A stretch of 64,000 nucleotides of DNA, from the NCBI GenBank assembly GCA_045534635.1, contig JAZSKB010000014.1, positions 25,941 to 89,940 of the forward strand, in the 5' to 3' direction. Shown here piece by piece: positions 18,039 through 51,259 of this stretch. The translations under genes were made by a program, and so were the position numbers. How positions within the stretch are numbered: position 1 is the stretch's first letter; every line of letters begins with the position of its first letter. The notes beneath the pieces were generated by a model that saw only the letters and a list, made by a program, of their open reading frames with translations, made no database searches and was not told the DNA's origin. The DNA is from Bacteroidales bacterium. Its GTDB lineage: Bacteria > Bacteroidota > Bacteroidia > Bacteroidales > WCHB1-69.

Positions 18039-18129
18039 TAAAAAAAATCGTTTCAAAAAGTAGAAATTTGTATTTTTTCCTTTTTTACAATTTTCAAAAT
18101 ATATTTTTCGTTTTTTTACAAAAAAATGC

Positions 18130-35900: not shown

Positions 35901-38900
35901 TATGTAATTTCAAGTTTTGTTTTACAAGTAAATTAGAGATATTGTTGTTAGCACAATTCAAGTTTTCTAACAATGGAGTTGGACTTACGTCTAAACTATC
36001 CAAATTATTGAATGAGCAATTCAACAATGTTAATTGAGCATTTTCATCAACATTTAGATTAGTGATAACATTATTGTGGCAATCTAATTCTATCAACGCT
36101 GGGTTGTTGTTTACGTTCAAGGTTGACAAATTATTGTTTGCACAATATAGATATGTTAACATAGGAGCCTTATCAACATTCAATGTATAGAGGCTATCGT
36201 CGCTACAATTCAAATATGTTAAAACGTCATTAGTAACAGAAACGCCTAAAATATTTTCTGCATTTTGTTCGCAGTGCATACCTACAACGTTACCATAAAC
36301 GACAACCATATCGCTAAGGGTTGTAAAGTTAAGAACATTGGTCCAAGCGGTATCAACGATTATAGTTGTATCATTTTTACCATTGATATTTACGCCTACA
36401 ATCATAACAGCAGTATTTGGAACTTCACCTTTAACCATAAAGTTGATTTGTCCACCTTGAGGAACATCGAAAATTGTATAACGGTTCATATTTGCTGGAC
36501 AAACATAATTTTCGTCGGTTGTATTAGGAATAGTAACATTTTTGTCTGCATAATTCACTGTCCAATTTTTATTTTTAGCGAGAGTTGAATTTGTTGCGAT
36601 AAATTCTGAATAGTTGTTATCATTTTTATCGTACAATGGGTAGAATGTACCTGTTTCATTGCCTAAGAATGGCATAGAACACATTACATCGTTGTAATTT
36701 AAGGTTGTGAATGCGTTACCATAGATAGATAAGTATCTCAAACCTCTATTGCGGCTTACATCTAAACTTGCCAAAAGATTGTCGTTACAAGATAATTTTT
36801 CCAATGCGATATTGAAAGTAACATCTAAAGTGTTCAATTTGTTGTTATCGCAAGCGATTTCTACCAATGCTTCATTGTTTATAAGGTTCAATGAGGTCAA
36901 TTGGTTTTTATTTAATGACAAGTTTGTCAATGCGGTATTGTTACTTAAATCTATAGATGTCAAGTTGTTTATATTGCAGTTCAAGTTTTCTAAAGCAACA
37001 TTTGAGTTCAAGTTCAATTGGTCTAATTGGTTAGAAGAACAATCTAATATTCTTAAAACGCTATCGTTATTAACATTCAAACTTGTCAAATTGTTGGTGT
37101 AGCAATAAACTTCTTGTAAATTAGTATTTGTACTCAAATCTAAACTTGTCAAGAGGTTGTTATAGCAATGTAATATTGTCAAAGACTCTGCTCCGCCTGT
37201 GGTCAAAGTGTTCAAAGTATTGAATTGACAATATACTTCTTGTAAGTTTACATTTTGAGATAAATCTAAGTCATTTAAATTATTTTTAGAGCAGAACAAT
37301 TCTTCCAAAGATGTATTGGTACTTAAATTGAAGCCTACTAAATTGTTTTCTTCACAATGTAAAGATTTCAAATCGCTTAAGTAATCTATGTTCAATGATG
37401 TTAAGCGGTTAGCGTTAGCATTTAAGTATTCCAAAGATGTATTTTGAGTTAAATCCAAAGTTGCAATACTATTGTTATTACATATCAATGTATTCAACGC
37501 TGGGCTTTGGCTTACGTCTAAGGAAAGAATATTGTTGTTGTTACATGTTAAGTTCACTAATGATGTTGCTGTACTCAAATCTAAACTACTGATACTGTTG
37601 TCGTTGCATACTAAATTTTCTAAAGTAGCATTATTTACAACAGTCAAGCCTAAGATATTGGTATTATTTGAGTTACAATCGAATGATTGAACATCACCAT
37701 AAATATGCATAGTATCAGCATCTGAAATGTAAGATATTACACCTGTTGAGTTAAGACCAACATAAACTATAGTATCTAAAGAACCGCTTACAACATTAAC
37801 AGCACTATTGTTAGTAGAAGCGTTCAATTTGAATTTAATTTCTTGATTTTTTTGAACGTTCAAAGCGATAATGCTTGTAGTATCGATAACAGGACAAGCG
37901 TAAGTACCATTAGTGCTTGCTATTGGGGTATTGTTGCTATAAAGCACGTTCCACAATTTTCCTGAAGCGATAGTTGAGTTTGAACTCATAAATGCGGTAT
38001 CGTTATTGCTATTGTACATTGGATAGAAATTTCCTTTACCTACTGTAATAATAGGCATAGAACACATTAACTCGTTGTATGCTTGACTTGTAAAGTAATT
38101 GCTATAACAAGTAAGTGTTCTCAATTGAGTATTGGCTCTTACATCTAATGCTTTCAAGATGTTGTCGTTACAGATTAATGTTTCAAGAAGTTTATTCTTG
38201 CTAACATTCAAACGAGTAAGACTATTTTTAGCACAATTCAAATGTTTCAAATTAGCATTATTGAATACTTCTATATTAGAGATGTTAGCACCATTTTCTG
38301 AACAATCTAAACCAGAAGCATCTCCATAGATATACAATATATCATCATCTGCTGCATAGAATGGCATTGCATCTGACCAAGTGTCATTGATTGCGAAAGT
38401 TGTATCAAGAGAACCACAAGATACTCTTACGTAAGTTTCTGCGGTGTCTGCCAATAATTTCAAATTGATTTGACGACCTTGTTTAGTTTTCAATGTCATT
38501 ACATTAGAATTATTTACAAATGGACAAATATAATCACCTGTTGTGAAAGGGATTGTCGTATTATCGTTGTAAATTACATTCCAAGATTTTTCGGTTGCGA
38601 TATTTGAGTTTGCACTACCGAATACATAAGCAAGCATATCTGATGGGTTGTACAATGGTACAAATGTTGCTTGAGTGCCTACTATTGTTGGCAATGAACA
38701 CATTATATCATTGAATTTGGAGAATGTAAACAAGTTGCCATAAACTCTTACATCGGTTAGAGCGACATTGTTGTTACAATTCAATGATTTCAATTTATTA
38801 TTGAAGCAATGCAAGGTTTCTAATGCGATATTGCTATTGATATTCAATAATGTTAAATTATTGTCATTGCAATACAATTCTCTTAAGAAATTGAATTTCT

Positions 38901-41900
38901 TTATGGTCAAACTTGGAATACTGTTGAATGAACAATTGATTACTTGGAGATATTTATTGTTATCAATGAAAATATCTTTGATTTCATTGTTATTACACAA
39001 CAATGTTTCTAACAATGTATCATTATAGAATATAAGAGATGCTATTTTATTGAAAGAACAATCTAAATATTTCAAACTTCTCTTACCTGTTGCATCTGGA
39101 GACAAGTCTAAAGAAGAAATTGCATTGTGAGAACAATCTAAATATCTCAAAGAATGAGCGTTTTTGATTTCTATACCTGTTATTTTGTCTCCATTGTTAG
39201 AACAATCTAAAGCGGATAACAATCCAGTTATTGTTACAATAGCGTCATCAGCGATAAAGGTTTGGAAATCGGTGAATGTAGTATCTGCGGTTACTAAGTT
39301 ATCGATTCCACCAGAAGTTACTCTTATCAATGAATTTGGTAAACTTGCTCCCATACGAAGTTTTACACTTTCACCTTGTTTAACATAAAGGATTACTTCG
39401 GTTTCTGGGGCTATTTGTGGACAAATATAAGTTCCTTCGGTTTCTGAGATAGCAGTTTGAGAATTGAAATAATTTACATTCCATTTTTTCACTTTAGCAA
39501 TGTTTGAGTTTGCTAAATGGAAGATAGAACTATCTGCATCTTTGTTATCTTTCAATGGATAGAAGTTTCCTGAGCCTTTTGACATCATTGGAAGACCACA
39601 CATCAAATTGTCGAAATCTACTGTTGAAAATCTGTTTTCAAAACATACCAAATAATTTATTGATTTGCTGTTGTTTACATTTATAGATTTCAATTGATTT
39701 TGTTGACAAGATAATGCGTTCAAACTTGAACAGCCGTTCATATCAAGTTCGGTCAACGCATTGTTTGAACAATCTAAATCTACCAAAGTGGTACAAAGTG
39801 ATACATTCAATGTTGCTATATGATTGTTTCTACAAATCAATTGTTCTAAAGATGCACATGTGTTTACATCTAAAGATGTCAATTCATTGTATTCACAATC
39901 TAAGGATGTTAGGGCTTGAGCCTCTGTTAAATCCAATGATTGTAATTTGTTGTTTGCACAACGAAGTTCTTTCAAATTTGGACATGATGAAATATCGAGA
40001 TAAGATAGTTTGTTGCTATAACAATCTAAATATTCCAATGAGAAACAAGAAGATAAATCTAATCCTGTCAATGAATCATCGTTACAACGCAAACGTTTCA
40101 ACGCTGGGGTGTTTGCCAAATTCAAATCATGAATTTTGTTTTGGAAACAATACAAATCGGTTAATGATAAACAATTGCTAACATCTAAAGATGTCAAGTT
40201 GTTTCTGTCACAATAAAGGGTACAAATACTACGATTGTGAGAAACGTTTATATCTGAAATATTTTCATAGTTACCGCCACAATCAAGACCATTTACATCA
40301 CCATATATTTGAATATTTGGTGCTCCTGCGGTGATATTGATTACTTTTGACCAGCCTGTTGTTGCAAAAACAAAAGTATCAAGTGCACCACTTATCACTC
40401 TTACTTGAATAGATGATGGAGCCATCAATTTAAATTTTATAGTTTCTCCTTGGGCTACGTCCATTTGGATATAACTTGAAGTATTAACCGTTGGACATGT
40501 GTAAGTTCCTGTTGTGGTTATGTTGGTGTTTATAGAGTTTCCAAAACCTACTTTCCAGCCTTTATTTTTTGCTATATTTGCATTTGCTGCCATAAATGCT
40601 TTATAATCTGCATTAGTGGTTGTGGTATTATAAACTGGTAAGAAGCGGCAATTTTCTGAACCGGGAACAGATACAATATTACACATCATTTGATTGTAAC
40701 TTTCGGTAGTAAATAGGTTGTTTCCGCAAGAGATATATTTCAATGCGGTATTGCGGGAAATATCAAGGTCTAATAGATAGTTGCTATCACACATCAAGGT
40801 ACACAATGCCGTATTTAAGGTTACTGACAACGATTGTAATCTATTGTTTACACAACTTAAGTTCTTCAATACGGTATTTGTTCCTAAGTTTAAGGTAGTT
40901 ATTTTATTTCTTGTACATATCAATTCTTCTAATGCAAGGTTTTTACTTACATCTAAGGTTTTGAGTTCATTGGCATGACATTTTAAGTTTACCAAACTTG
41001 TTAAAGTTGAAACATCTAAGGTTGTTAATTTGTTGCTGTAACAATACAATTGTTCCAATGCTGTATTTTGACCAACGGTCAATGTTGCAATTTGGTTCTC
41101 CATAGCATTGCATAATTTCAATTTGGTATTGTTGGAGATATCCAAAGATGTAAGTTTATTAATTGAACAATAAAGCGAATCCAAATTAGGTAAATTGCTA
41201 ATATTCAATGATGTTAAATCATTTGTATAACAGTTTAAGTAAGTAAGTTTAGCATTGTTGCCTAATGTTAGCGATGTTAATTTATTTCTACCACAATTCA
41301 AAGAAGTAAGTCTTGTGTTTTTGCTAACATTTAAACCTGTTATAAATGTTGAATTGTTAGAACAATCTAAGGTTGCTATTTTTCCGTAGATAGTCATTGT
41401 TGTTGCATCTGCATAGAAATACAATGGTGTAGATTGGTTAGGATTTACAAGTGTAAAAGTAGTATCGTAACCACCAGAAACAACACTAACAACGGTAAAT
41501 GCACTATCTGCTGAGAAGTCTAATTTTATCCATTTGCCTTGTGTTACTGTTAAAGATACAGAAGTGGTAGTATCTAAAACAGGACATGGATAAGGAATAC
41601 CAGAAGTAAAGTTAGGTTGAACACCTTCGTCTATTGTTGCTACAGACCAACCTTTACTCATTGCGTTCATTACGTTTGCTTCTACAAATCTTTGGTAGCA
41701 TGGGTCTAAGGTTGTGTTGGTATTTGTACGGAATGGACGGATATAAGCGTATGCTTGATTTGCTGGTTTAGGACAAATTCCGCACATCATATCGTTGTAA
41801 CTTTGAGTTGTAAATGGACAATCGGCTATTCCGATATCCATTAATTTTGGATTTTGGCTTACGTTCAACGATTTGATAGAAGTTCCACTACAATTAAATA

Positions 41901-44900
41901 CTTGTAAATCTGGGTTATTTGCCAACAATACTTTGGTTATAGAGGTATTTCCGCTACAATTTACTGCATTGATATCTCCGTAGATAATTATTGTATTATT
42001 TGCTGAATCAGATGACATTATTAATTGATATGTGCCCACTTGGTTTTTCCATTGTTTATTTACGATTTGATAAATACTCTTCTGTCCATTAACGATAAGA
42101 ACAGGAGTATTGTTGCTATCTGCACGTAAATCTAAATTAAGAATAGAATCCGCTCTAATACCTTGAAGGGTTATATATTTGTTCATATTTACCTTCTCTT
42201 GACCGCACATAAAGGTTCCATTTCCATTATAAGGTCCTGTGCCCCAATTTTTAGATTGGGCAATAGAGATATTTGTATTATAAAATGGAAAAGATGAATT
42301 ATAAGTAGAAGAAGTTAGTGTGTATAAAAAACACATACCTTGACTTCTTCCAATTCTTTCTGGTATTTGACAGAAAATATTATTTATTTCTTCGGTAGAA
42401 AATTTATTATTACGAGCATACAATAGACGCAATGAGTCACAACCAGAAACATCTAATGTTGTTAAATTATTAGAATCTAAATAAATACAATCTAACACAG
42501 GACAATTAGAAATGAATGCACTTGTTAAAGTTCTGGTTGCAGCAGAACTACTTCCACTTAAATATACAGTTCTAAGTTTACCCATTTTTCTTAAATCTAT
42601 CGTTTTCAAACGGTGGTCGTTTACACGCAACCATTCTAAATTAGAACAGTTATAGATATTTAAATAGGTTACATTAGCATTATTTAAATCTAAGTGAACC
42701 ATATAAGGCATGAGATTAGCATCAAGACCTGTTATATTTGCATTGGTATTAGAAATATAGAATCTGCGAATATCTCCAAAAACAGTGATACTGTCGGTTT
42801 TTGTTTTGTAATTAAATGATGTAATTTCGTCTCCATTAGAAACAACTATTGTTGTATCAAAATTACCGTCTTTAATAAGGACTGCTCTACCTGCATTTAC
42901 ATTAATTCTATAAAATGGCAATACAACATCTTTTTTCGTTTTAATACCTATATAATAATCCATAACAGGATATTCACAATTGAAAGTACCTACTGTAGTA
43001 ACCGCTTTACCGCTCCAATTCCAGTTTTTCGCTGTTGCAATAGAAGCATTGGTATTTCTAAAACGAGTACTATCATCTGAAGTTGAAACCAATTTTATTG
43101 TTCCTTTATTGTTAGTAGGTCTTTGTGGCAAAGCACACATTATAGAGTCAAATCCTACTGTTGTATATTTATTTTCATCGGCTATTAAGTAGCGTAAATT
43201 AGGACAATTGTTAATATTTAAGTAAGTTTTTGTTGCAGATAAATATTGTTGTCTGATATTTGCTGTGTAGAAAGTTTTACCTCCGTAACTTGCATAATAT
43301 TTATCAGATGTTTGTATTGTTGTTACATTAGGCAATTTATTAAAACCATAAGAATTACAAGTAAGTTCTTCCAAAGCAGGCAAGCCTTTACTTAAATCTA
43401 AATTAGCCAACCAATGCTTACCAAGATTAAGACGTTTTAACTTAGGACAATTTTCAATTTGAGCATTGTAAATATTGAGCATATCACCTAAATTTATGGT
43501 ATGCAAGTTTTCACATTGAATAATATTAACATAACAGGGCTCCCATTGCGGATAGAAGTCTGTACCAGAATATTGTTGTTCTCCTTCTACCTCACGGTCA
43601 TTGCAAACATAGATTTCTTCAAGCGATGAGTTAGAGTAAACCTTAATAGAATCTATATATCGGAAATAAACATCTAATTTTTTAATATTCCCATAGAAAT
43701 AGAAAACAGAGTCTGAACCTGCAGGCCATGTTATACCACTTTCACCTATATATACATTCAAAGTCGGAGAATTTTGACCAACTATGTTTCTATGTCCACC
43801 CCATTGTATAACAATATCAGGATATTGTGTATTTTCTCCTTTTTGTATTCTCCAACTAAAATATCCTGTTGGATCATAAGGACGTTTTGTTCTTATTTCT
43901 ACACAACTAGAAAAATCTACCTTTGAATATAACTGCATATCATTACAAGTTACTGTATATATAGGACTTGCAAGAAGAGGAATATTATTTCCATTAGAAT
44001 ATTTATATGTCCAATTTTTATTTGTTCCTAAAGTAAAGCAACAACTTCGGATTGCAGCTACATCTTCATTTGTATTATAGGCATATATTGTCGCATTATT
44101 ACTAGCAGATCTTGAAGGTAAGGCACAGAAAAACATATCCCATGAAGCAGAATTGAACCTATTTCCTGCCATCCATATAGTCACAAGTTGTGACCTGTTA
44201 GATGGTGGCAATTTTATATCTGCTATACCATTACCATCTATTTCTAAATCTGTTAAATTGATTTGATTAGTTATATCTAACTTAACAATTTTATTATTCT
44301 TAAGGTTAAGATATTTCAAATTTTGACACTTTGCTAAATCTATTTGAGTAAGTCCTAATTCACGAAGATTAAGCCTTTCTAAATCAACACTTTTTATTTC
44401 TATATCTTTAATACCATTTTGGTTTTCCAATGCAAAAACTCTAAAGTCACCATAAATGGTAACAATAGTATCTGTTGCAGGAATTCGATAAGTAGAAGAA
44501 TAAGTACCTGACATAGTAGTATATCCATATCCAGCAGGACGAACCAAAGTGTCCATATCTCCACAAATAATTCTTACCCATTCTTTTTTTCCATTAGCAA
44601 TATATCCAAGGTTTACCGTTACCATAGAATCTTTTGCTACCGTTATTTTTGCATAATTATCAGAAATAAAAGAACAAGGTTCTTGTCCGTTTGTTTTAAT
44701 ATTACTATTAATAGCAGTAGCAGCGACAATTCTCCATTTTTTTGCATTCAAATCTACTGTTGACATATTGAGAACCGTATAATAATCTGGGTCTGAAGGG
44801 GTGTTGCTATATATTGGAACAAATCTTTTATCACTCGTGACGTTGTTGTCAGGGAAAGCACACACTATTTTATTGAGTTCTTCTGTGGTAAAGGCATTTT

Positions 44901-46677
44901 TATAACAATACAAATATTTTAATTTTGTAGCCTTAGAAACATCTAAAGAAGCAATCTCATTGTTGAAACAGAACAAAGATGTAAGTTCAGTATTGTGAGT
45001 AATATCTAAACCATACAATTTTTGTTGGTTATCGCTACAAGTAAAAGAAACAATATCTCCATAAATAGTAATATTATCAGAACGAGGAACGATATTGATA
45101 GCCATCCCAATATTGTTAGCGGTAAAAACAGTATCAAAAGCACCAGAGATAACACGTATAGGTGTTCCTACCGCGACTACATCAAAAGATAAATTGATAC
45201 GCTCTCCGCGGATAACATCTAATGAAATATATCTGTCTAAATTAGCACAATTGTGATTACCTGTTGTCGCAGGAATATCTATAGCACCAGTATATGTCCT
45301 CACTGTCCAATTTTTATTTTTTGCTATATTGGAATTTGTTTTAATAAATTCATTGTAATCAGTATTACCAATACTACCAATAGGGTAGAAAGATCCTTTA
45401 GAATTAGCAGGACATGTAGGCAACGCACACATTATTTTATCGTATGTAATAGCCGATAAAGATATATCATTAGCACAATTAACGTAATTTAAGTCTGGAA
45501 GATTTCCCAAGGTTACATCCGTTAACTTAGACAAGTCATTAATATACAATGTTTTAAGGTTTTTAAAATTAGAAACATCTACACTATAGATATATTGATT
45601 GTTGTTGCTATGATAAAGGCAAAAGGTTTGTACTTCACCATAAATAGTTAAAATGGTATCGCCAGCTTTTATTGTTCTCCAAGCGCCATTACCTTTAGGA
45701 ACTAAAGTATTATAAGTTTCATTACCAGAAACAGCGTAAATATATATATCTTTGTCATTATTTCTTGCAACAAAGGATATGTCTTTCCCTTTCTCAACAC
45801 GGAGGGTAGCGTATTGGTATAAATTAACACCATCACATTCGTATGTTCCTATAGAGTTAAATTCTTGTCCAGAATAGAATACTACGTTCCAATTTTTGGC
45901 TTTTGCAGTAGAAAAATTAGCGTTATAGAAATTATCATAATAAGAGGTCGTGTTATTTACAACTGTAATTTTTCCTTTCGCATTTATAGTACGTACTGGT
46001 AATTTACATATCAAATTATCAATATCAGCAGTAGATAAATTAGAAGCGTAAGTAGTGATGTCTTTTAAATTAGGAGCAAAGTTAGTATCAGGAAGAATCA
46101 ATGAGGTTAAATTATAATTATTGTGTAGAAACAATGCTTCCAATTTTTCGTGACAAGTAGATAAATCTAATGTAGAAATAGAATTGTACGATAGATTAAG
46201 AGTTTTCAAATTAGAAAGATTGTTAAGTGTTACCGTTTCTATACCAGTATAGCCACCAGAACCGACGGATAAATACGTTAAATATGGATTGTTAACAATA
46301 TTAACAGACTTCATATTGTATTGGTTATTTAAAAAAACTTGTGTTACTTGAGAGTTTTGCAAATTAAAATCCAATATCACATAGCCTGAGGGGGTATAAA
46401 TATAATTTATATTTCCATAAATTCTTAATATCGTATCAGTAGATACTATCTTATTAAAAGATCTATTCCCCGCAGAAATTGTGCTACTATATTGGTTTTG
46501 TCCACCAACAATCAGAACTGGAGTATTCGCTGCTTTTGCAGCCAAGGTTATGTATGAAATGGTATCCCCTGGCTTAACTTTAAAGGTAATGTAATTGTTC
46601 ATGTCTTGTCCCCAAGCGGCATTAAAGCACAGCAAAATCAGGGACACTAACGTAATAAATTTTCTAAATCTTTTCAT
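32980..46677 (-). CDS. giant (4565 aa) modular leucine-rich-repeat surface protein with T9SS type A sorting domain (BspA-like)
   Basis: Uninterrupted 13.7-kb ORF with a signal peptide (MKRFRKFITLVSLILLCFNAAWGQ). I count 16 modules, each with a beta-sandwich-like segment (..IYGD..LDCS.N), 22-23-aa LRRs (L..L.C..N.LT.LDLS.N) and a cap motif (FTTQAFDDLMCSMP...G.F.PL). The C-terminus reads ITVYPNPANTTINI...KGMYYIKIDNTTAKFVKQ. Confidence 0.9.
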   Translation of the reverse strand: MKRFRKFITLVSLILLCFNAAWGQDMNNYITFKVKPGDTISYITLAAKAANTPVLIVGGQNQYSSTISAGNRSFNKIVSTDTILRIYGNINYIYTPSGYVILDFNLQNSQVTQVFLNNQYNMKSVNIVNNPYLTYLSVGSGGYTGIETVTLNNLSNLKTLNLSYNSISTLDLSTCHEKLEALFLHNNYNLTSLILPDTNFAPNLKDITTYASNLSTADIDNLICKLPVRTINAKGKITVVNNTTSYYDNFYNANFSTAKAKNWNVVFYSGQEFNSIGTYECDGVNLYQYATLRVEKGKDISFVARNNDKDIYIYAVSGNETYNTLVPKGNGAWRTIKAGDTILTIYGEVQTFCLYHSNNNQYIYSVDVSNFKNLKTLYINDLSKLTDVTLGNLPDLNYVNCANDISLSAITYDKIMCALPTCPANSKGSFYPIGSIGNTDYNEFIKTNSNIAKNKNWTVRTYTGAIDIPATTGNHNCANLDRYISLDVIRGERINLSFDVVAVGTPIRVISGAFDTVFTANNIGMAINIVPRSDNITIYGDIVSFTCSDNQQKLYGLDITHNTELTSLFCFNNEIASLDVSKATKLKYLYCYKNAFTTEELNKIVCAFPDNNVTSDKRFVPIYSNTPSDPDYYTVLNMSTVDLNAKKWRIVAATAINSNIKTNGQEPCSFISDNYAKITVAKDSMVTVNLGYIANGKKEWVRIICGDMDTLVRPAGYGYTTMSGTYSSTYRIPATDTIVTIYGDFRVFALENQNGIKDIEIKSVDLERLNLRELGLTQIDLAKCQNLKYLNLKNNKIVKLDITNQINLTDLEIDGNGIADIKLPPSNRSQLVTIWMAGNRFNSASWDMFFCALPSRSASNNATIYAYNTNEDVAAIRSCCFTLGTNKNWTYKYSNGNNIPLLASPIYTVTCNDMQLYSKVDFSSCVEIRTKRPYDPTGYFSWRIQKGENTQYPDIVIQWGGHRNIVGQNSPTLNVYIGESGITWPAGSDSVFYFYGNIKKLDVYFRYIDSIKVYSNSSLEEIYVCNDREVEGEQQYSGTDFYPQWEPCYVNIIQCENLHTINLGDMLNIYNAQIENCPKLKRLNLGKHWLANLDLSKGLPALEELTCNSYGFNKLPNVTTIQTSDKYYASYGGKTFYTANIRQQYLSATKTYLNINNCPNLRYLIADENKYTTVGFDSIMCALPQRPTNNKGTIKLVSTSDDSTRFRNTNASIATAKNWNWSGKAVTTVGTFNCEYPVMDYYIGIKTKKDVVLPFYRINVNAGRAVLIKDGNFDTTIVVSNGDEITSFNYKTKTDSITVFGDIRRFYISNTNANITGLDANLMPYMVHLDLNNANVTYLNIYNCSNLEWLRVNDHRLKTIDLRKMGKLRTVYLSGSSSAATRTLTSAFISNCPVLDCIYLDSNNLTTLDVSGCDSLRLLYARNNKFSTEEINNIFCQIPERIGRSQGMCFLYTLTSSTYNSSFPFYNTNISIAQSKNWGTGPYNGNGTFMCGQEKVNMNKYITLQGIRADSILNLDLRADSNNTPVLIVNGQKSIYQIVNKQWKNQVGTYQLIMSSDSANNTIIIYGDINAVNCSGNTSITKVLLANNPDLQVFNCSGTSIKSLNVSQNPKLMDIGIADCPFTTQSYNDMMCGICPKPANQAYAYIRPFRTNTNTTLDPCYQRFVEANVMNAMSKGWSVATIDEGVQPNFTSGIPYPCPVLDTTTSVSLTVTQGKWIKLDFSADSAFTVVSVVSGGYDTTFTLVNPNQSTPLYFYADATTMTIYGKIATLDCSNNSTFITGLNVSKNTRLTSLNCGRNKLTSLTLGNNAKLTYLNCYTNDLTSLNISNLPNLDSLYCSINKLTSLDISNNTKLKLCNAMENQIATLTVGQNTALEQLYCYSNKLTTLDVSTLTSLVNLKCHANELKTLDVSKNLALEELICTRNKITTLNLGTNTVLKNLSCVNNRLQSLSVTLNTALCTLMCDSNYLLDLDISRNTALKYISCGNNLFTTESYNQMMCNIVSVPGSENCRFLPVYNTTTTNADYKAFMAANANIAKNKGWKVGFGNSINTNITTTGTYTCPTVNTSSYIQMDVAQGETIKFKLMAPSSIQVRVISGALDTFVFATTGWSKVINITAGAPNIQIYGDVNGLDCGGNYENISDINVSHNRSICTLYCDRNNLTSLDVSNCLSLTDLYCFQNKIHDLNLANTPALKRLRCNDDSLTGLDLSSCFSLEYLDCYSNKLSYLDISSCPNLKELRCANNKLQSLDLTEAQALTSLDCEYNELTSLDVNTCASLEQLICRNNHIATLNVSLCTTLVDLDCSNNALTELDMNGCSSLNALSCQQNQLKSINVNNSKSINYLVCFENRFSTVDFDNLMCGLPMMSKGSGNFYPLKDNKDADSSIFHLANSNIAKVKKWNVNYFNSQTAISETEGTYICPQIAPETEVILYVKQGESVKLRMGASLPNSLIRVTSGGIDNLVTADTTFTDFQTFIADDAIVTITGLLSALDCSNNGDKITGIEIKNAHSLRYLDCSHNAISSLDLSPDATGKRSLKYLDCSFNKIASLIFYNDTLLETLLCNNNEIKDIFIDNNKYLQVINCSFNSIPSLTIKKFNFLRELYCNDNNLTLLNINSNIALETLHCFNNKLKSLNCNNNVALTDVRVYGNLFTFSKFNDIMCSLPTIVGTQATFVPLYNPSDMLAYVFGSANSNIATEKSWNVIYNDNTTIPFTTGDYICPFVNNSNVMTLKTKQGRQINLKLLADTAETYVRVSCGSLDTTFAINDTWSDAMPFYAADDDILYIYGDASGLDCSENGANISNIEVFNNANLKHLNCAKNSLTRLNVSKNKLLETLICNDNILKALDVRANTQLRTLTCYSNYFTSQAYNELMCSMPIITVGKGNFYPMYNSNNDTAFMSSNSTIASGKLWNVLYSNNTPIASTNGTYACPVIDTTSIIALNVQKNQEIKFKLNASTNNSAVNVVSGSLDTIVYVGLNSTGVISYISDADTMHIYGDVQSFDCNSNNTNILGLTVVNNATLENLVCNDNSISSLDLSTATSLVNLTCNNNNILSLDVSQSPALNTLICNNNSIATLDLTQNTSLEYLNANANRLTSLNIDYLSDLKSLHCEENNLVGFNLSTNTSLEELFCSKNNLNDLDLSQNVNLQEVYCQFNTLNTLTTGGAESLTILHCYNNLLTSLDLSTNTNLQEVYCYTNNLTSLNVNNDSVLRILDCSSNQLDQLNLNSNVALENLNCNINNLTSIDLSNNTALTNLSLNKNQLTSLNLINNEALVEIACDNNKLNTLDVTFNIALEKLSCNDNLLASLDVSRNRGLRYLSIYGNAFTTLNYNDVMCSMPFLGNETGTFYPLYDKNDNNYSEFIATNSTLAKNKNWTVNYADKNVTIPNTTDENYVCPANMNRYTIFDVPQGGQINFMVKGEVPNTAVMIVGVNINGKNDTTIIVDTAWTNVLNFTTLSDMVVVYGNVVGMHCEQNAENILGVSVTNDVLTYLNCSDDSLYTLNVDKAPMLTYLYCANNNLSTLNVNNNPALIELDCHNNVITNLNVDENAQLTLLNCSFNNLDSLDVSPTPLLENLNCANNNISNLLVKQNLKLHTLNCANNNLEELVVVPNVELHTLDCSNNNLQDLDITNNSRLTALNCSSNQLTSLDLSYNPSIVRVACFNNLFSTQAFDDLMCSMPIVSNGIGLFFPLNDTYDNNDSLFKEANAITAMAKNWDVAYYSAFDPIYTNGTYVCPANMNNFVTMNVKQNEPIAIDVMSNLAIAPIRVISGRYDTTIYISNNWSGIINYTSEDTIMTVYGDFIALNCANNADNIIAIDASNAQITELNCESNAISSLILPQNATLESLNCASNQLLNLNLNNSSALVELNCANNTLSDLDLSQNVALEVLDCSGNNLAILDVNNNIALNTLICYNNPFTTQTYDDLMCSMPFAVNNTGNFFPLYDINDVNDTIFNNANANTANIKNWNVAYFSTNDVISTIGVWICPVDTNNFITLNVTPNEPIAFDIHSQLTTAVKIVNGSFDTIVYIGNTWYGKTSYIADMNTITIYGNVESFDCANNTEILSINISNNTGLAYLDCSNSAQTSLDLSQNAALNVLNCANNNLSTLDINNNIALKELNCANNNLAGLTLSQNTALEVLNCTDNYLTTLDVAANNALNTLICYNNPFTTQAFDDLMCSMPTVVNNVGIFTPLFDDVDANYTQFMAANSSIALTKNWNVIYANATDVPATNGKFSCNLNMNQFITVDIAPNARINIGFTGNYFDAVVRVISGTTDTILFLDTTWTYLTFLSDDNAMIIYGDLEKFDCSNNGLSINAINVDNNTILTYLNCSSNNISNLNVANNTALNTLFTNSTQLSNLDVSKNLALTSLYCNNNNLTTLDVANNTQLEILACNNNALTSLDLSANTALNYLACYGNNFTSKDYDLLMCSMNQIDSVIGKFFPLRASSDPNYTQFMAANSNTAINKNWDVLYYSVNVNIPETRGKYDCFTGLDEVETEQITVYPNPANTTINITGVTAEHVDIYDITGRLILTVPTNGDEIVTINVSELAKGMYYIKIDNTTAKFVKQ

Positions 46678-46730
46678 ATTTGCAATATAATTTTAAATTA
46701 ATAATTCTTTTTTTTTACTTTCTACATTAA

Positions 46731-46744
46731 TATATATATATATA
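46731..46744. repeat. (TA)7 dinucleotide microsatellite in the leader of the giant LRR gene
   Basis: tatatatatatata lies 54-67 nt upstream of the ATG at 46677. Confidence 0.9.
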
Positions 46745-46949
46745 AGCGTTATCGCTTATCGTTTGGAGTTGCCCTTTTTGTTTTTCAACAACAGGCATTG
46801 AGGTTAAAGAACAATGTTTGTAAACAAACCTCTTATATGGAGGCGTTTTACTAATGTCAAAAAATACTTTTTTCTTCATACGTGATAAATTTTTATTTAT
46901 ATTAATATTCTATTTCTTCTATTTCTATTTCTCATTTTTCAGCAAATTC

Positions 46950-47040
46950 AGTGATAACCCCGCAAAGTTGTAAGTACCCCCTACGTAATGCTCTACGAGT
47001 ACATACAGCCTGCGTTCACACCTAAAGTGCTAATACTTAA
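46950..47040 (-). other. GC-rich, imperfectly self-complementary element in the leader of the giant gene (candidate cis-regulatory RNA structure)
   Basis: The minus strand reads AGCACUUUAGGUGUGAACGCAGGCUGUAUGUACUCGUAGAGCAUUACGUAGGGGGUACUUACAACUUUGCGGGGUUAUCACUGAAUUUGCU. Outer arms AGCA/UGCU, GUGA/UCAC and CGCAGG/CUUUGCG pair, as do the inner arms CGUA/UACG. It stands out from a surrounding spacer that is about 20% GC by eye. Confidence 0.3.
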
Positions 47041-47122
47041 TTGATTTTAATGTTAATAAATATGTTCATAAATAGTTTAAACTTTTTTACTTAATAAAAA
47101 ACTAACGTTATATTTCAGCCAG

Positions 47123-47130
47123 CAAAGATA
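47123..47130 (-). promoter_or_regulatory. -7 box TATCTTTG, distal promoter candidate for the giant LRR gene
   Basis: GTTATCTTTGCTGG on the minus strand, about 445 nt upstream of the ATG at 46677. It is the only exact TAnnTTTG I see between the array and the gene. Next to the ATG there is only the near-miss TATATTGCAAA. Confidence 0.5.
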
Positions 47131-47260
47131 ACACTTTTTTTTATACAAAACAACATTTTACAAAAAAAAGTGCAAAAAGTGCAAAATTTTTCTTCTTCAA
47201 TGAAATTTTTCAAAAAACTCTTGCTCCAAATGTGTTCTATTGAAATTCGTTTTTGTCTCA

Positions 47261-48273
47261 AAAAAAAGGCTACTTGGAAAGTAGCCCAAAAATTATATTA
47301 ACTAAATTAAATAAAATAAAATCGTGCTACCTTTCGTAGCATACTTATAACGTAAGAAAATACAAATTATTGTATGCGTGAAAAAAAATTGTTTCACTTG
47401 TTTTCATCAAAAAAAAAGGGCTACTTGGGAGGTAGCCCCGAAAAAAAACAAGATTTGCTGAATTATCAGCAATAAATACTGCATTGTTTATAACGTAAGA
47501 AAGTACAAATTATTGTATGCGTATAAAAAAAGGGGCTACTTAGAAAGTAGCCCATAATTAAAATATTTAAAAACATAAAATGCTGTAGGAATAACAACAA
47601 CATTATTTGTAAAAGAACGTAAAAAATTACAAAATATTGTATGCGTAAAAAAAGGGGCTACTTGTATGTAACCCCCTATCATGAAAAAAATAATTTTTAA
47701 GCTGTAGGAATAACAACAAAAACATATTTATAACGTGAGAAAATACAATTTATTGTATGTGTGTAAAAAAATAGGACCACCTGAGAAGTGGTCCCGAAAC
47801 CATAAAAGAAACTGCTATAATTATATAGCAACAATTACTGCATTGTTTATAACGTAAGAAATTACAAATTATTGTATACGTACAAAAAAAGGGGCTACTT
47901 GTATGTAACCCCTATTATGAAAAAGCTTATTATAATAATAGCTACGTTTTTATAACGTAAAAAATTACAAATTATTGTATGCGTATAAAAAAAGGGCTAC
48001 TTAGAAAGTAGCCCCCGAAAATTAATCAAAACAATAATTCATTTTTTTCAGATAAATATGAAAATCTTAGTAATATAGCAATATTACTTGTAATGATAAC
48101 GTAACAAATAAAAAAATATTGTTATAAGTACAAAAAAAAAGGGCTACTTGGAAAGTAGCCCCGAAAAATATTAAATTAAATTCAAGAATTAAGAATTCTG
48201 CAATTATAATAACAACATTGTTTATAAAAAAACGTAAAAAAGTACAAATTATTGTATCTGTGTAAAAAAAATC
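47261..48273 (-). repeat. tandem array of 8 units (period 103-150 bp), each a conserved ~40-nt box, a variable hairpin and a terminator-like GC hairpin; candidate multicopy sRNA genes
   Basis: GC hairpins are at 47268-47287, 47418-47439, 47532-47553, 47654-47675, 47774-47794, 47891-47912, 47994-48014 and 48141-48161. Each is preceded on the plus strand by A7-9, which reads as a U-tract after the hairpin on the minus strand. Boxes are at 47344-47380, 47482-47523, 47601-47647, 47723-47765, 47841-47883, 47945-47985, 48092-48131 and 48216-48264. Confidence 0.75.
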
Positions 48274-48292
48274 AAACACCAATAAGCAAAAA

Positions 48293-48385
48293 AAATACGC
48301 TCAGAGGTGTTTTTGATAAAAAAGATTTTACGCTGGGAGGTGTTTTTTGCAAAAAAGATTTTACGCTCAGAGTAATTTTTTTTTG
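48293..48385. repeat. 33-bp tandem repeat, 3 copies (ACGCT[CAG/GGG]AGGTGTTTTTTG-AAAAAAGATTTT)
   Basis: ACGCT anchors at 48297, 48330 and 48363 give an exact 33-bp period. The cluster lies immediately upstream of the ATPase promoter. Confidence 0.85.
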
Positions 48386-48403
48386 TAATTAAATAATTTT
48401 TAG

Positions 48404-48411
48404 TATCTTTG
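48404..48411 (+). promoter_or_regulatory. -7 box TATCTTTG (AAA ATPase)
   Basis: TATCTTTGCAAAA, 17 nt before the ATG at 48429. Confidence 0.7.
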
Positions 48412-48428
48412 CAAAAAAATAAAATGTT

Positions 48429-49769
48429 ATGCAAAAAATAAAATTTAAACGTAAAGCCTATAAGCAATTGCAACAATGGAAAAATGAATCCAGTGGCAAA
48501 ACAGCATTATTGGTAGAAGGAGCCCGCCGTATAGGAAAATCAACCTTGGTAGAAGAATTTGCAAAAAAAGAATATAAATCGTATATACTAATAGATTTCG
48601 CCAACGCCCCAAAAGAAATAAACACCTTGATAGAAACTTATATAAACGATTTGGATTATTTCTTTTTGCAATTGCAATTTATCTATAAAGTACAACTGTA
48701 CAAACGCCAATCGTTGATAATCTTCGATGAAGTACAAAAACAACCCTTGGCCCGCCAAGCAATAAAATATTTGGTAAAAGATGGAAGATACGATTATATA
48801 GAAACCGGCTCATTAATCAGTATCCGCAAAAATATAAAAGATATAGTAATCCCCAGCGAAGAAGACCGCATACAAATGTACCCCATGGATTATGAAGAAT
48901 ATCTATGGGCATTGGGAGATACAAGCACTATTCCCCTATTAAAAGAAATCTATCATCGTCAAGAAAAATTAGGAGAAGAAACCCATCGAAGATTGATGCG
49001 AGATTTTCGACTATATATGCTAATAGGCGGAATGCCTCAAGCCGTAGCCGAATACCTATCAACCAACAATCTACAAAAAGTAGATAAAGTTAAACGCCGT
49101 ATTTTAACCCTTTACGCCGATGATTTGCGAAAAATAGATAATAGCGACCGCTTGCGAACACTATTCTGGTCTATCCCCGCAGAACTACACAAAAATATAT
49201 CTCGCTACCAAATGACCACAATAGTAGAAAATACAACCACAGAAAAACGCCAAGAACTATTGGAATCGTTGCGAGAAAGTATGATAGCCAATGTCGCCTA
49301 TCGCTCCAACGACCCCAATGTCGGTCTGCATCTTACCGCAGACAAATCAAAATATAAAATGTATTTAGCCGATACCGGCTTGTTTGTTACTCTCGCATTC
49401 TGGGATAAAGATTTTACAGAAAATATCATTTATCAAAAATTACTTAACGATAAATTGTCTGTAAACCTTGGTTATGTTTATGAAAATGCTATCGCCCAAA
49501 TGATTCGCAGTTCAGGCAATGAATTGTATTATTATAGTTTCACCAATGAAAATAGAAATCAATACGAAATAGATTTCTTGCTCTCTCGCGGAAATAAAAT
49601 CATACCAGTAGAAGTAAAATCTTCAAACTATAAAACACATAAATCATTAGACCTCTTTTGCGAAAAATTTTCTTCTCGTATCAGCGACCGTATTTTGCTT
49701 TACTCTAAAGATTATAAAAAAATTGGAGCCATAAAATGCCTGCCAATGTATTTGGCTTCGTTTTTATAA
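48429..49769 (+). CDS. AAA-family ATPase of the AAA_14/DUF4143 type
   Basis: 446 aa with Walker A GARRIGKST and Walker B LIIFDEVQ. The C-terminal part (YEIDFLLSRGNKIIPVEVKSS) resembles the DUF4143 nuclease-like fold. Confidence 0.8.
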   Translation: MQKIKFKRKAYKQLQQWKNESSGKTALLVEGARRIGKSTLVEEFAKKEYKSYILIDFANAPKEINTLIETYINDLDYFFLQLQFIYKVQLYKRQSLIIFDEVQKQPLARQAIKYLVKDGRYDYIETGSLISIRKNIKDIVIPSEEDRIQMYPMDYEEYLWALGDTSTIPLLKEIYHRQEKLGEETHRRLMRDFRLYMLIGGMPQAVAEYLSTNNLQKVDKVKRRILTLYADDLRKIDNSDRLRTLFWSIPAELHKNISRYQMTTIVENTTTEKRQELLESLRESMIANVAYRSNDPNVGLHLTADKSKYKMYLADTGLFVTLAFWDKDFTENIIYQKLLNDKLSVNLGYVYENAIAQMIRSSGNELYYYSFTNENRNQYEIDFLLSRGNKIIPVEVKSSNYKTHKSLDLFCEKFSSRISDRILLYSKDYKKIGAIKCLPMYLASFL

Positions 49770-49775
49770 TTATAA

Positions 49776-49837
49776 AAATACGCTCAGAGGTATTTTTGAT
49801 AAAAAAGATTTTACGCTCAGAGTATATTTTTTTTTGT
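49776..49837. repeat. 33-bp tandem repeat, 2 copies
   Basis: ACGCT anchors at 49780 and 49813. The cluster starts 7 nt after the ATPase stop codon. Confidence 0.85.
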
Positions 49838-49915
49838 TTTTATTTGTAAATCAGTTTGTTAAAAAAAATAAAAATAAACAACATTTTTTTGTTGTTTTTG
49901 GGCAGTTTTTGTTGT
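49826..49915. repeat. ~90-bp duplicated segment, copy 1
   Basis: The sequence tttttttttgtttttatttgtaaatcagtttgttaaaaaaaataaaaataaacaacatttttttgttgtttttgggcagtttttgttgt recurs at 50059-50148. It contains the hairpin aaacaaca-tttttt-tgttgttt. Confidence 0.85.
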
Positions 49916-49943
49916 CAAAAATAAACATCAATAAGCATAAAAA

Positions 49944-50070
49944 AAATACGCTCAGAGGTATTTTTGATAAAAAAGATTTTACGCTGGGAGGTGTTTTTTG
50001 AAAAAAAGATTTTACGCTGGGAGGTGTTTTTTGAAAAAAAGATTTTACGCTCAGAGTAATTTTTTTTTGT
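49944..50070. repeat. 33-bp tandem repeat, 4 copies
   Basis: ACGCT anchors at 49948, 49981, 50014 and 50047. The two middle units are identical (gattttacgctgggaggtgttttttgaaaaaaa). Confidence 0.9.
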
Positions 50071-50148
50071 TTTTATTTGTAAATCAGTTTGTTAAAAAAA
50101 ATAAAAATAAACAACATTTTTTTGTTGTTTTTGGGCAGTTTTTGTTGT
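50059..50148. repeat. ~90-bp duplicated segment, copy 2
   Basis: Near-identical to 49826-49915. Both copies follow a 33-bp repeat cluster. Confidence 0.85.
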
Positions 50149-50156
50149 AAAAAAAA

Positions 50157-50277
50157 GGCTACTTAGAAAGTAGCCCTAAAAAAATAATAATGTCAAAAAC
50201 AAAAAATATGCTACAATAATAATAACAACATTGTTTATAAAAAAACGTAAAAAAATACAAATTATTGTATCTGTGTA
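50157..50277 (-). repeat. ninth, isolated copy of the box + hairpin unit
   Basis: The hairpin ggctacttagaaagtagcc is at 50157-50175 after an A-run. The box at 50229-50277 is nearly identical to the copy at 48216-48264. It lies directly downstream (minus strand) of the serA terminator. Confidence 0.75.
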
Positions 50278-50285
50278 AAAAAAAA

Positions 50286-50309
50286 TCAGACACCGCAAGC
50301 AGTGTCTGA
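50286..50309 (-). terminator. intrinsic terminator of serA
   Basis: TCAGACAC-TGCTTGCG-GTGTCTGA followed by T10 on the minus strand, 30 nt after the stop codon. Confidence 0.85.
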
Positions 50310-50338: not shown

Positions 50339-51259
50339 TTAAAAAGGATTAACTTGGAATTTTTTGTTGCCATTATTGATAAAATCAACAATTTGATTAG
50401 CGGCAGCAATACCCGCGTTAATATTTGCTTCTTCTGTTTGAGCACCCATTTTTTTAGGAGTAGCGAAGAAACGACCTTCAAATTTATTAAACTCTTCAAT
50501 ATTGTCAGGAGCAATATCTGAAATGTATTTCAAATCAGTTCTTTCGTTCATCAATTTGATTAATTCCTCTTCGTTGATAACTTCTTTACGAGCAGTATTA
50601 ACAACGATACCACCTTTTTTCAATTTGTTAACAAGTTGATAATCAATGCTTTTTTTGGTTTCAGCGGTAGCAGGAATATGTAAAGAAACGATGTCACAAA
50701 TTTCAAACAATTGTTCTTTAGAGTCAACAGGAGTAACGCCTTCTGCTTTGATGGCATCAGCCGAACAAAAAGCATCGTAAGCGTAAATATCCATACCAAA
50801 GCCTTTAGCAATACGAGCAACATTTTTACCAACATTACCAAAAGCCAAAAGCCCAATTTTTTTGCCCATCAATTCAGAACCAGATTTACCATTGAAGAAA
50901 TTTCTAACACCATAAACCAACATACCCATTACCAATTCAGCAACAGCGTTAGAGTTTTGTCCTGGAGTATTCATAGCAACAATGCCTTTTGCCGTACAAG
51001 CGTCAAGGTCTAAATTGTCAAAACCAGCACCTGCTCTAACAACAATTTTTAAATTGTTAGCATGTTCAATAACTTCTTTTGTAACTTTATCAGAACGAAC
51101 GATTAAAGCATCAGCATCAGCAACGGCTTTGTATAAATCGTTAACGTCAGTATATTTTTCAAGTAATGCTAATTCAAAACCAGCATTTTCAACAACATTT
51201 CTAATACCGTCAACGGCAACTTTAGCAAAAGGTTTTTCAGTGGCAACTAAAACTTTCAT
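50339..51259 (-). CDS. serA: D-3-phosphoglycerate dehydrogenase (short form)
   Basis: 306 aa D-isomer 2-hydroxyacid dehydrogenase with an NAD fold (IGLLAFGNVGKNVA). It lies downstream of serC. Confidence 0.85.
   Translation of the reverse strand: MKVLVATEKPFAKVAVDGIRNVVENAGFELALLEKYTDVNDLYKAVADADALIVRSDKVTKEVIEHANNLKIVVRAGAGFDNLDLDACTAKGIVAMNTPGQNSNAVAELVMGMLVYGVRNFFNGKSGSELMGKKIGLLAFGNVGKNVARIAKGFGMDIYAYDAFCSADAIKAEGVTPVDSKEQLFEICDIVSLHIPATAETKKSIDYQLVNKLKKGGIVVNTARKEVINEEELIKLMNERTDLKYISDIAPDNIEEFNKFEGRFFATPKKMGAQTEEANINAGIAAANQIVDFINNGNKKFQVNPF

Follow-up and report, generated by a model that had tools for sequence, protein, structure and literature searches.

The question raised by this locus is what, if anything, is encoded by a tandem array of repeated units in a 64,000-nucleotide stretch of Bacteroidales DNA (contig JAZSKB010000014.1, positions 25,941 to 89,940; the whole of this stretch is referred to below as the window). 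The array lies within a 1751-bp non-coding gap (46678-48428) that has a giant leucine-rich repeat (LRR) gene on one side and an ATPase gene on the other, and in it eight conserved sequence boxes alternate with eight minus-strand intrinsic terminators (47259-48264). A ninth complete unit (u9) was found at 50148-50277, directly after the terminator of a serA gene. The reading pursued here, to which we assign about an even chance, is that these units are eight tandem paralogous sibling genes for small RNAs (sRNAs) and a ninth behind serA, all on the minus strand and lineage-specific.

Anatomy of the repeated unit

Seven boxes of the array and one outside it fit the pattern AACGTAAGAAANTACAAATTATTGTA when up to 3 mismatches were allowed. 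The corresponding matches were at 47349, 47492, 47616, 47732, 47851, 47954, 48231 and, outside the array, 50244, as opposed to 0 matches in shuffled sequence, which served as the control. The seventh box of the array (48098-48123) is degenerate and was too divergent for this pattern, with 7 mismatches and a score of 19.5 bits as opposed to 30-36 bits for the other boxes. Start-to-start distances between boxes were 143, 124, 116, 119, 103, 144 and 133 nt, in agreement with an earlier sequence-only reading of this DNA, in which a module recurring eight times at a spacing of 103-150 bp had been described; that reading gave no position for u9. Apart from these units, neither the box nor the array hairpin sequence was present in the 64 kb.

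Read on the minus strand, the order of elements within a unit was ACGCAT-ACAATAATTTGTA-nTTTyTT-ACGTT, an optional insert of 5-6 nt (present in u3, u7, u8 and u9), TTATAAACAATG, a non-conserved stretch of 31-69 nt, an 8-11-bp GC hairpin and a run of U7-9. The next box mostly began 0-3 nt after the preceding U-run, and the conserved sequence formed one contiguous block of about 75 nt (i.e., hairpin, U-run and box) with the variable segments between. The exceptions were u1, the box of which is separated from the u2 terminator by a 28-nt insert, and u8, which has nothing but a decayed serA terminator copy ahead of its box. Within the box, an inverted repeat of 5-6 bp (TACAA-N4-TTGTA) was invariant in 8 of the 9 boxes. 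One stretch of the predicted unit RNA, UUACGUUAUAAACAAUG, is a possible target for a hybridisation probe. The units and the sequences adjoining them, in minus-strand order, were as follows.

50286-50309: serA terminator, ahead of the u9 box
50148-50277, minus strand: u9, outside the array; box 50229-50277, variable segment 50178-50228, terminator 50148-50177
48267-48290: decayed copy of the serA terminator, ahead of the u8 box
48131-48264, minus strand: u8, the first unit of the array on this strand; box 48216-48264, variable segment 48163-48215, terminator and U-run 48131-48162
47986-48131, minus strand: u7; degenerate box 48086-48131 (TTTG missing from its normal position), variable segment 48017-48085, terminator 47986-48016
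48069-48088: AU hairpin in the variable segment of u7
47883-47987, minus strand: u6, the shortest unit; box 47945-47987, variable segment 47914-47944, terminator 47883-47913
47766-47884, minus strand: u5; box 47841-47884, variable segment 47796-47840 with the hairpin UGCUAUAUAAUUAUAGCA, terminator 47766-47795
47646-47765, minus strand: u4; box 47723-47765, variable segment 47678-47722, terminator 47646-47677
47525-47649, minus strand: u3; box 47599-47649 (5 nt inserted behind ACGTT), variable segment 47554-47598, terminator 47525-47553
47409-47525, minus strand: u2 (117.5 bits); box 47482-47525, variable segment 47440-47481 with the hairpin UUGCUGAUAAUUCAGCAA, terminator 47409-47439
47381-47408: 28-nt insert between the u1 box and the u2 terminator
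47259-47382, minus strand: u1, the last unit and the nearest to the giant gene; box 47339-47382, variable segment 47288-47338 with the hairpin GCUACGAAAGGUAGC, terminator 47259-47287

Terminators, mosaic conservation and duplication

A promoter and terminator scan of positions 46500-48600 gave 12 terminator-like sites as opposed to 1.0 +/- 0.9 in shuffled sequence. Eight of the 12 were homologous GC hairpins of the type GGGGCTACTT-loop-AAGTAGCCCC, each with T7-9 after it on the minus strand (i.e., eight homologous strong terminators on one strand inside 900 nt), at the positions given here.

47267-47287, 47417-47439, 47533-47553, 47652-47677, 47773-47795, 47890-47913, 47992-48016 and 48140-48162, minus strand: GC hairpins of the array

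Counting that of u9, nine GC hairpins of 8-11 bp with T7-9 were present on this strand, and hairpins and U-runs of the same kind are used at real gene ends in the window, namely those of serC, serA and the giant gene. The claim of one minus-strand intrinsic terminator per unit, made in the sequence-only reading, was therefore borne out at a frequency well above that of chance. In 3.6 Mb of other DNA, chains of at least three same-strand terminators were found only twice, and both were weak and composed of non-homologous hairpins.

The strand of the terminators was also evident from folding energies. Seven of the nine array hairpins were more stable as minus-strand than as plus-strand RNA, the respective values being -14.9 and -9.9 kcal/mol for u4, -14.7 and -11.5 kcal/mol for u5 and -14.7 and -11.5 kcal/mol for u6; in each of these three units, a G-U pair of the minus-strand RNA corresponds to a C-A mismatch in the plus-strand RNA. 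The stem of u5 was kept by two compensatory double substitutions (G-C to A-U and U-A to C-G), and compensatory changes in the terminators were restricted to this one unit. As read from the folds, the differences between the middle hairpins of u2 and u5, which are homologous, were likewise paired changes. The covariation to which the sequence-only reading had looked for support was limited to one unit, with none across species.

A small hairpin had also been claimed for most of the variable middles, and this claim held in part. When middles were folded alone and compared with shuffled sequence, hairpins were clear in u2 (z -2.8) and u5 (z -2.2) and marginal in u3 and u4 (z -1.6), while the middles of u6, u8 and u9 were indistinguishable from shuffles. 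The segment cuts made for stand-alone folding clipped the hairpins of u1 and u7, both of which were visible in folds of the whole units. Judged from these predicted folds, the variable stem-loop is a trait of some copies and not of the family.

Conservation among the nine units was mosaic. Mean pairwise identity reached 0.77 in the box and 0.79 in the terminator as opposed to 0.53 and 0.45, respectively, for shuffled sequence, whereas that of the middle (31-69 nt) was 0.54 as opposed to 0.51 for shuffled sequence, related middles remaining only in the pairs u2/u5, u3/u4 and u8/u9. This pattern is unlike the uniform decay of a neutral tandem duplication and matches that of paralogous sRNA families in which a seed and a terminator are shared. 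Since every terminator of the series is shielded by the preceding one and needs a polymerase in order to be under selection, the maintenance of terminators every ~120 nt would imply that each unit is independently transcribed from a start of its own, for which the box would be the sole conserved candidate.

Evidence of duplication was found both within the array and between the array and u9. Units u8 and u9, between which the ATPase gene and its flanking repeats are situated, were 85% identical, the remnant of the serA terminator included, and the array and the serA-proximal unit are therefore related by segmental duplication. Within the array, the sub-arrays at 47340-47890 and 47723-48270 showed block-wise similarity. 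A variant of u9 on a Logan contig of the same species (L086) carried u8-like bases in its variable part, which suggests exchange between unit copies. The unit family most likely arose by unequal crossing-over of a whole promoter-to-terminator unit, and the position of u9 behind serA is probably the ancestral one.

The same signs of recent duplication (i.e., sub-array similarity, the shared middles of three pairs of units and the u9 variant that suggests copy exchange) are also expected of a macrosatellite, a tandem duplication of neutral or selfish character in which a terminator segment, or an ancestral sRNA gene such as u9, was multiplied by unequal crossing-over and homogenised by conversion. 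Agreement with this explanation extends to the single contiguous ~75-nt block of hairpin, T-run and box that makes up the conserved part, to the decay of u7 and to the confinement of the family to one species in all collection scans. Gene conversion leaves unexplained, however, why a middle of 31-69 nt is at random level between flanks of 77-79% identity, and neither the compensatory changes and G-U pairs that preserve the minus-strand hairpins nor the keeping of the locus in at least 15 public runs or assemblies is accounted for by neutral duplication. We consider the macrosatellite unlikely while granting it a real share of the probability.

No conserved open reading frame (ORF) was found in the units. 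A conserved ATG opens 2, 4, 6, 11, 25, 32 or 45 codons and is absent in u6 and u7; translations of the module had no relative among 5.8 billion proteins, and three small ORFs of the array were absent from the assembly index records. These results bear on the idea of a single long leader for the giant gene, in which the eight units would be attenuators in series, working either through a ribosome that stalls on a Leu-rich mini-ORF (MLLL...) or through antitermination at the box that depends on a factor. Leu codons do follow the conserved ATG in u3, u4, u8 and u9, and the units are co-oriented with the giant gene. The mini-ORFs, however, are not conserved in length (2-45 codons) or presence, no antiterminator segment complementary to the 5' arm of the hairpin was found, there is a perfect promoter motif on the downstream side of the array, and u9 is not upstream of the giant gene. 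To serial attenuation we allow next to no chance, and a ribosome-mediated attenuator or leader peptide was rejected for want of a conserved leader ORF and of an antiterminator.

Candidate promoters, predicted RNAs and targets

The promoter is the weakest link of the sRNA reading. TAnnTTTG, the canonical -7 promoter motif of Bacteroidota, is clearly in use in this organism: most of the operon-first genes of the window have it upstream, and perfect copies flank the array at 47130-47123 (minus strand) and 48404-48411 (plus strand, before the ATPase gene). Some promoters here may have a shortened -7 element, and a TTTG element of the box type may be usable as a promoter, because the cdd-era-recO operon (18126), which has no TAnnTTTG within 220 nt upstream (18040-18125), has its only upstream TTTG in GAAATTTGTATTTTTTC, a sequence identical at 13 of 17 positions to ATAATTTGTATTTTCTT of the box. 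As another possibility, ACAATA and ACGTT, which are invariant and 20 nt apart, could form a two-block promoter for an alternative sigma factor; a variant of this possibility, in which ACAATA could be the -35 and ACGTTA the -10 element of a promoter like those of extracytoplasmic function (ECF) sigma factors, was also considered.

If the units are sRNA genes, the upstream half of the box (ACGCATACAATAATTTGTA) would act as a non-canonical or weak promoter of the sigma-ABfr type, possibly with an operator in the palindrome TACAA-N4-TTGTA, and transcription would start near TTACG. The RNA would be about 78-119 nt in length (97, 90, 98, 93, 92, 78, 119, 107 and 103 nt as predicted for the nine units with TTACG as the start), with a 5' end consisting of the conserved single-stranded segment UUACGUU(+0 or 5-6 nt)UUAUAAACAAUG, which would be followed by a fast-diverging middle, with a small hairpin in some copies, and by a strong Rho-independent terminator as the RNA end. 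In agreement with this scheme, the conserved 5' segment was mostly unpaired in most minimum-energy folds of the predicted RNAs, the rest of which comprised, in some copies, a small hairpin, then a linker rich in U and finally the terminator. That 5' segment would serve as a seed for base-pairing with targets encoded elsewhere, or as a site for protein binding, and the multiple copies would provide for dosage or sub-specialisation. A bolder version, which we give a slim chance, is that of a diversified sRNA battery in which the block of hairpin, U-run and box would be the functional repeat, the 5' box segment and the 3' hairpin form a common handle and the middles are payload or recognition segments, different in each RNA. 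The array might control the giant LRR adhesin or other surface genes. Such an array of RNAs with repeats and variable inserts would be of a kind not known to have been described in Bacteroidota.

Several results weigh against the sRNA reading. No TAnnTTTG was present on either strand between 47131 and 48403, the closest approach being the TAATTTG of the box, which is one base short of the motif and lacks TTTG at -33; the near-miss of which the sequence-only reading had warned was thus confirmed. No recognisable -33 element was found in the units, nor was the box found upstream of any protein gene in the window. The 5-6-nt indel falls inside the proposed seed in 4 of the 9 units. Pairing of the 5' segment with the 520-nt leader of the giant gene (-9.8 kcal/mol) was no better than the shuffled mean (-10.0 kcal/mol), and the best duplexes with 36 translation start regions in the window were weak, at about -11 kcal/mol. 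The conserved block could equally have been homogenised by gene conversion. Finally, the unit was not found outside one species, and there is accordingly no cross-species conservation or covariation.

In further comparisons, a search for targets by duplex energy gave nothing above shuffled sequence, and an 8-bp match (ACGUUAUA / UAUAACGU) where the giant-gene messenger RNA (mRNA) presumably begins was not significant. A functional link between the array and the giant gene, as suggested in the sequence-only reading, is therefore unsupported, the leader pairing being no better than chance and the arguments for such a link being those of adjacency and orientation; the adjacency may only reflect the site of duplication. 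The earlier proposal of a tandem sRNA array itself fared better, in that strand-specific terminators, mosaic conservation, an unpaired 5' segment and freedom from ORFs and from Rfam, phage or plasmid matches all agreed with it, whereas a canonical promoter, copies elsewhere, covariation beyond u5 and pairing with the giant-gene leader were not found.

The inverted repeat that is invariant in 8 of 9 boxes, together with the location of the array immediately upstream of the giant gene's candidate promoter, in the same orientation, and the lack of a canonical promoter in the box, would also fit a cis-acting DNA array. According to this explanation, the box would be a putative site for a dimeric regulator or nucleoid protein (ATACAA-TAAT-TTGTAT), and the terminators would insulate the giant LRR gene, the promoter region of which would thereby be tuned or silenced. 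Conservation, however, runs ~25 nt past the palindrome (ACGTT...TTATAAACAATG), one terminator would be enough for insulation, and the boxes are ~210 nt (nearest) to ~1100 nt (farthest) from the -7 motif. In addition, no regulator gene adjoins the array, and u9 is situated behind serA, 3 kb from the giant-gene promoter and with the ATPase gene between. A cis-acting array was given a small chance on this balance. LexA-like motifs of Bacteroidota are GGA-N5-TCC and CTAA-N5-TTAG (PMC8565304); a LexA-like site was rejected, since the box matches neither.

Distribution, comparable systems and genomic setting

No family of Rfam 15 was found at gathering score in the whole window, and with E values up to 10 on positions 46600-48500, only sub-threshold and unrelated sRNA models, driven by the terminator, were seen; no Rfam family thus matched the unit of box and hairpin, in line with the sequence-only reading, whose author knew of no described Bacteroidota RNA family with this box. 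BLAST searches of phage and plasmid records gave no match. Exact box patterns had 0 matches in IMG/VR, in JGI metagenomes and in the collection of species-representative genomes. With the degenerate pattern ACAATA-N14-ACGTT, 75 singletons were obtained from genome contigs and at least 120 from metagenome contigs, all at chance level when compared with the module profile; several of the Bacteroidota matches were 11-40 nt before start codons, which was attributed to the T-rich composition of promoters and was not counted as evidence. The hairpin pattern GGGCTACTTNNNAAGTAGCCC was found in 39 unrelated single terminators, none of which had an adjoining box. Among 80 serA loci and 80 ATPase loci of relatives, no box, module or terminator cluster was present, and 1.5 Mb of related Bacteroidales loci (1.48 Mb for R1, a covariance model built from the nine units) contained nothing that was detectable by BLAST, nhmmer or R1. 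The unit is absent, then, from the related genomes that were searched, a result that the sequence-only reading had named in advance as damaging to it.

Within the species, the unit, u9 included, was found in Logan and ENA contigs (i.e., contigs with identical SerA or ATPase) from at least 15 public runs or assemblies. These contigs (L081-L100) were all shorter than 2.4 kb and ended within the box, the hairpin or 33-bp repeats, and many short-read contigs of the same species stopped exactly 114 nt after the serA stop codon. Short-read contigs break at repeats, and such arrays are therefore missing from short-read metagenome-assembled genomes (MAGs). This breakage at units, as well as the resemblance of a ~75-nt conserved module with a stable hairpin to elements of the REP (repetitive extragenic palindrome)/BIME (bacterial interspersed mosaic element), Correia and RUP types, would be expected of a small mobile or intergenic element of the REP/MITE (miniature inverted-repeat transposable element) kind, consisting of hairpin and box and inserted repeatedly. 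Nine copies in one orientation within 3 kb and none in the other 61 kb (~35 intergenic regions) are not, nor were terminal inverted repeats, target duplications or copies in other genomes, phages or plasmids searched found. Repeated insertion of such an element was judged very improbable.

Tandem sRNA genes are known from other phyla, and the sequence-only reading had likened the layout to one such family, LhrC1-4. LhrC1-4 of Listeria monocytogenes (Firmicutes) are four near-identical tandem sRNA genes, each with its own promoter and terminator, beside a surface/virulence locus; the RNAs have loops with CU-rich UCCC motifs and are under LisRK control. The array is like LhrC1-4 in having head-to-tail units beside a surface-protein locus and unlike LhrC in having no recurring UCCC motif and no match to LhrC in Rfam, as well as in its phylum. 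CcsR1-4, or 'cuckoo' RNAs, of Alphaproteobacteria (Rhodobacter) are tandem hairpin sRNA units that occupy a single intergenic region on the downstream side of a gene, with which they are co-transcribed before processing, and share a CCUCCUCCC loop motif. The array resembles CcsR1-4 in its tandem short hairpin-containing units in one intergenic region; every array unit, in contrast with CcsR, ends in a full terminator, and CcsR-style co-transcription is therefore unlikely.

Regulation by RNA has recently been opened up in Bacteroidota by studies of GibS, FopS and RbpB in Bacteroides thetaiotaomicron. FopS of this species comprises 14 paralogous sRNAs of 65-70 nt, each with a single-stranded 5' seed followed by a terminator, which repress mRNAs of SusC-type transporters and bind RbpB (PMC11697453). 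The 12-15 FopS genes per genome are dispersed, have canonical sigma-ABfr promoters, are conserved across Bacteroidaceae and were validated by Northern blot, crosslinking and immunoprecipitation (CLIP) and genetics, and according to the authors, a model of the family has been deposited in Rfam (PMC11697453). GibS is a related single-copy sRNA of 145 nt with a PM2 promoter (PMC7366714). FopS is, by analogy, the closest functional counterpart of the array units: both are from Bacteroidales and multicopy, with a 5' segment as the seed (predicted in the case of the array) and copies that differ mainly outside it. Unlike FopS, the array units are tandem as opposed to dispersed, have a predicted length of 78-119 nt with an extra variable middle as opposed to 65-70 nt, lack a canonical promoter and are seen, as a family, in a single species. 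Another difference from FopS and GibS is that the array matched no family in Rfam, the presence of the FopS model in the copy of Rfam used being unconfirmed.

In its alternation of a hairpin-bearing conserved repeat with non-conserved segments, the array is also like CRISPR arrays and REP/BIME. CRISPR was rejected because the repeat is ~75 nt and not 23-50 nt, the 'spacers' are 31-69 nt and include related pairs and no cas gene was found in the 64-kb window; REP, BIME and MITE were rejected because the nine copies are within 3 kb on one strand, with none elsewhere in the 64 kb. The earlier statement that the layout is not that of CRISPR, REP or insertion sequences was upheld, no such features having been found.

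If transcribed, the units, eight of them consecutive and a ninth apart, would rank with the largest known tandem arrays of sRNA genes and would be the first such array reported from uncultured AT-rich rumen Bacteroidales, whereas if not transcribed, they would be a lineage-specific tandem repeat of a terminator region, of little wider interest. Provided that the sRNA reading is true, the locus illustrates the birth of an sRNA family by unequal crossing-over of a whole gene from promoter to terminator. The array is, in either case, unusually large, is located in a phylum with a young sRNA biology and is restricted to one uncultured species, and it shows why such families escape short-read metagenome assemblies, which break exactly at the repeats.

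The window has a G+C content of 31% and contains genes typical of Bacteroidales (dnaA, uvrB, mutL, argS, a Tex-like gene, serC and serA) as well as several genes for cargo proteins of type IX secretion that have a Por_Secre_tail or CHU_C domain. The features nearest to the array and dnaA were as follows.

32980-46677, minus strand: giant gene for a 4565-amino-acid LRR protein and type IX secretion cargo, on one side of the array gap
47123-47130, minus strand: perfect TAnnTTTG TATCTTTG (motif match), candidate promoter of the giant gene
48429-49769, plus strand: AAA_14/DUF4143 ATPase gene, on the other side of the array gap
50339-51259, minus strand: SerA-like gene
57716-59155: dnaA

The SerA-like protein was at best 82-85% identical to proteins of rumen or hindgut Bacteroidales MAGs (Candidatus Limimorpha, RGIG and RUG bins), and the ATPase of the closest relatives had 77% protein identity. 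The host is therefore an uncultured ruminant-gut Bacteroidales without a close representative in the genome collection. The giant protein has a C-terminal sorting domain for type IX secretion, and its N-terminal 300 residues had no homologue among 5.8 billion proteins at E <= 1e-10, and orthologous upstream regions were therefore not retrievable by that route. The candidate promoter of the giant gene (47130-47123) would imply an unusually long leader of ~440 nt; upstream of it are a 17-bp A/T-rich inverted repeat (47132-47148 / 47156-47172) and AAAAAGTGC, present 2.4 times at 47165-47186.

The replication origin is probably close to the window, since dnaA and the array are 10 kb apart, although the GC-skew profile was not decisive. 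A reading of the array as oriC repeats was rejected because no TTATCCACA-like site was present in 46678-48428, and the 27 DnaA boxes of the window, as opposed to 24 expected, were neither in excess nor clustered above chance.

Just upstream of the ATPase gene is a 33-bp tandem repeat, TACGCTCAGAGGTGTTTTTGATAAAAAAGATTT, in 2-4 copies, the sites in the window being 48296-48372, 49774-49832 and 49942-50065. The repeat is kept in DNA (68-77% over ~85-125 nt) at the same position relative to ATPase homologues in at least 11 other Bacteroidales MAGs (L176, L179-L186, L190 and L195, at about 3820-3985), the ATPases of which are 63-77% identical in amino acid sequence. It appears to be an upstream element specific to this gene family, perhaps an operator or leader, and we know of no earlier description of it. 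Close homologues of the ATPase (57-65% amino acid identity) were also found on contigs that binning had assigned to E. coli, Clostridia, Oscillospiraceae, Synergistaceae and other groups (L209-L213, L220, L227 and L250), which would reflect either mis-binned Bacteroidales contigs or horizontal mobility of the ATPase family. On the downstream side of the ATPase gene is a direct repeat of 143 bp (94% identity; 49779-49921 / 50013-50154). It consists of 33-bp repeats and a ~90-nt A/T-rich segment, and its copies, which have no gene after them, resemble orphaned ATPase upstream regions. Together with the u8/u9 duplication, these orphan repeats suggest that the ATPase gene was inserted or rearranged inside an older gene order of serA, sRNA and giant gene.

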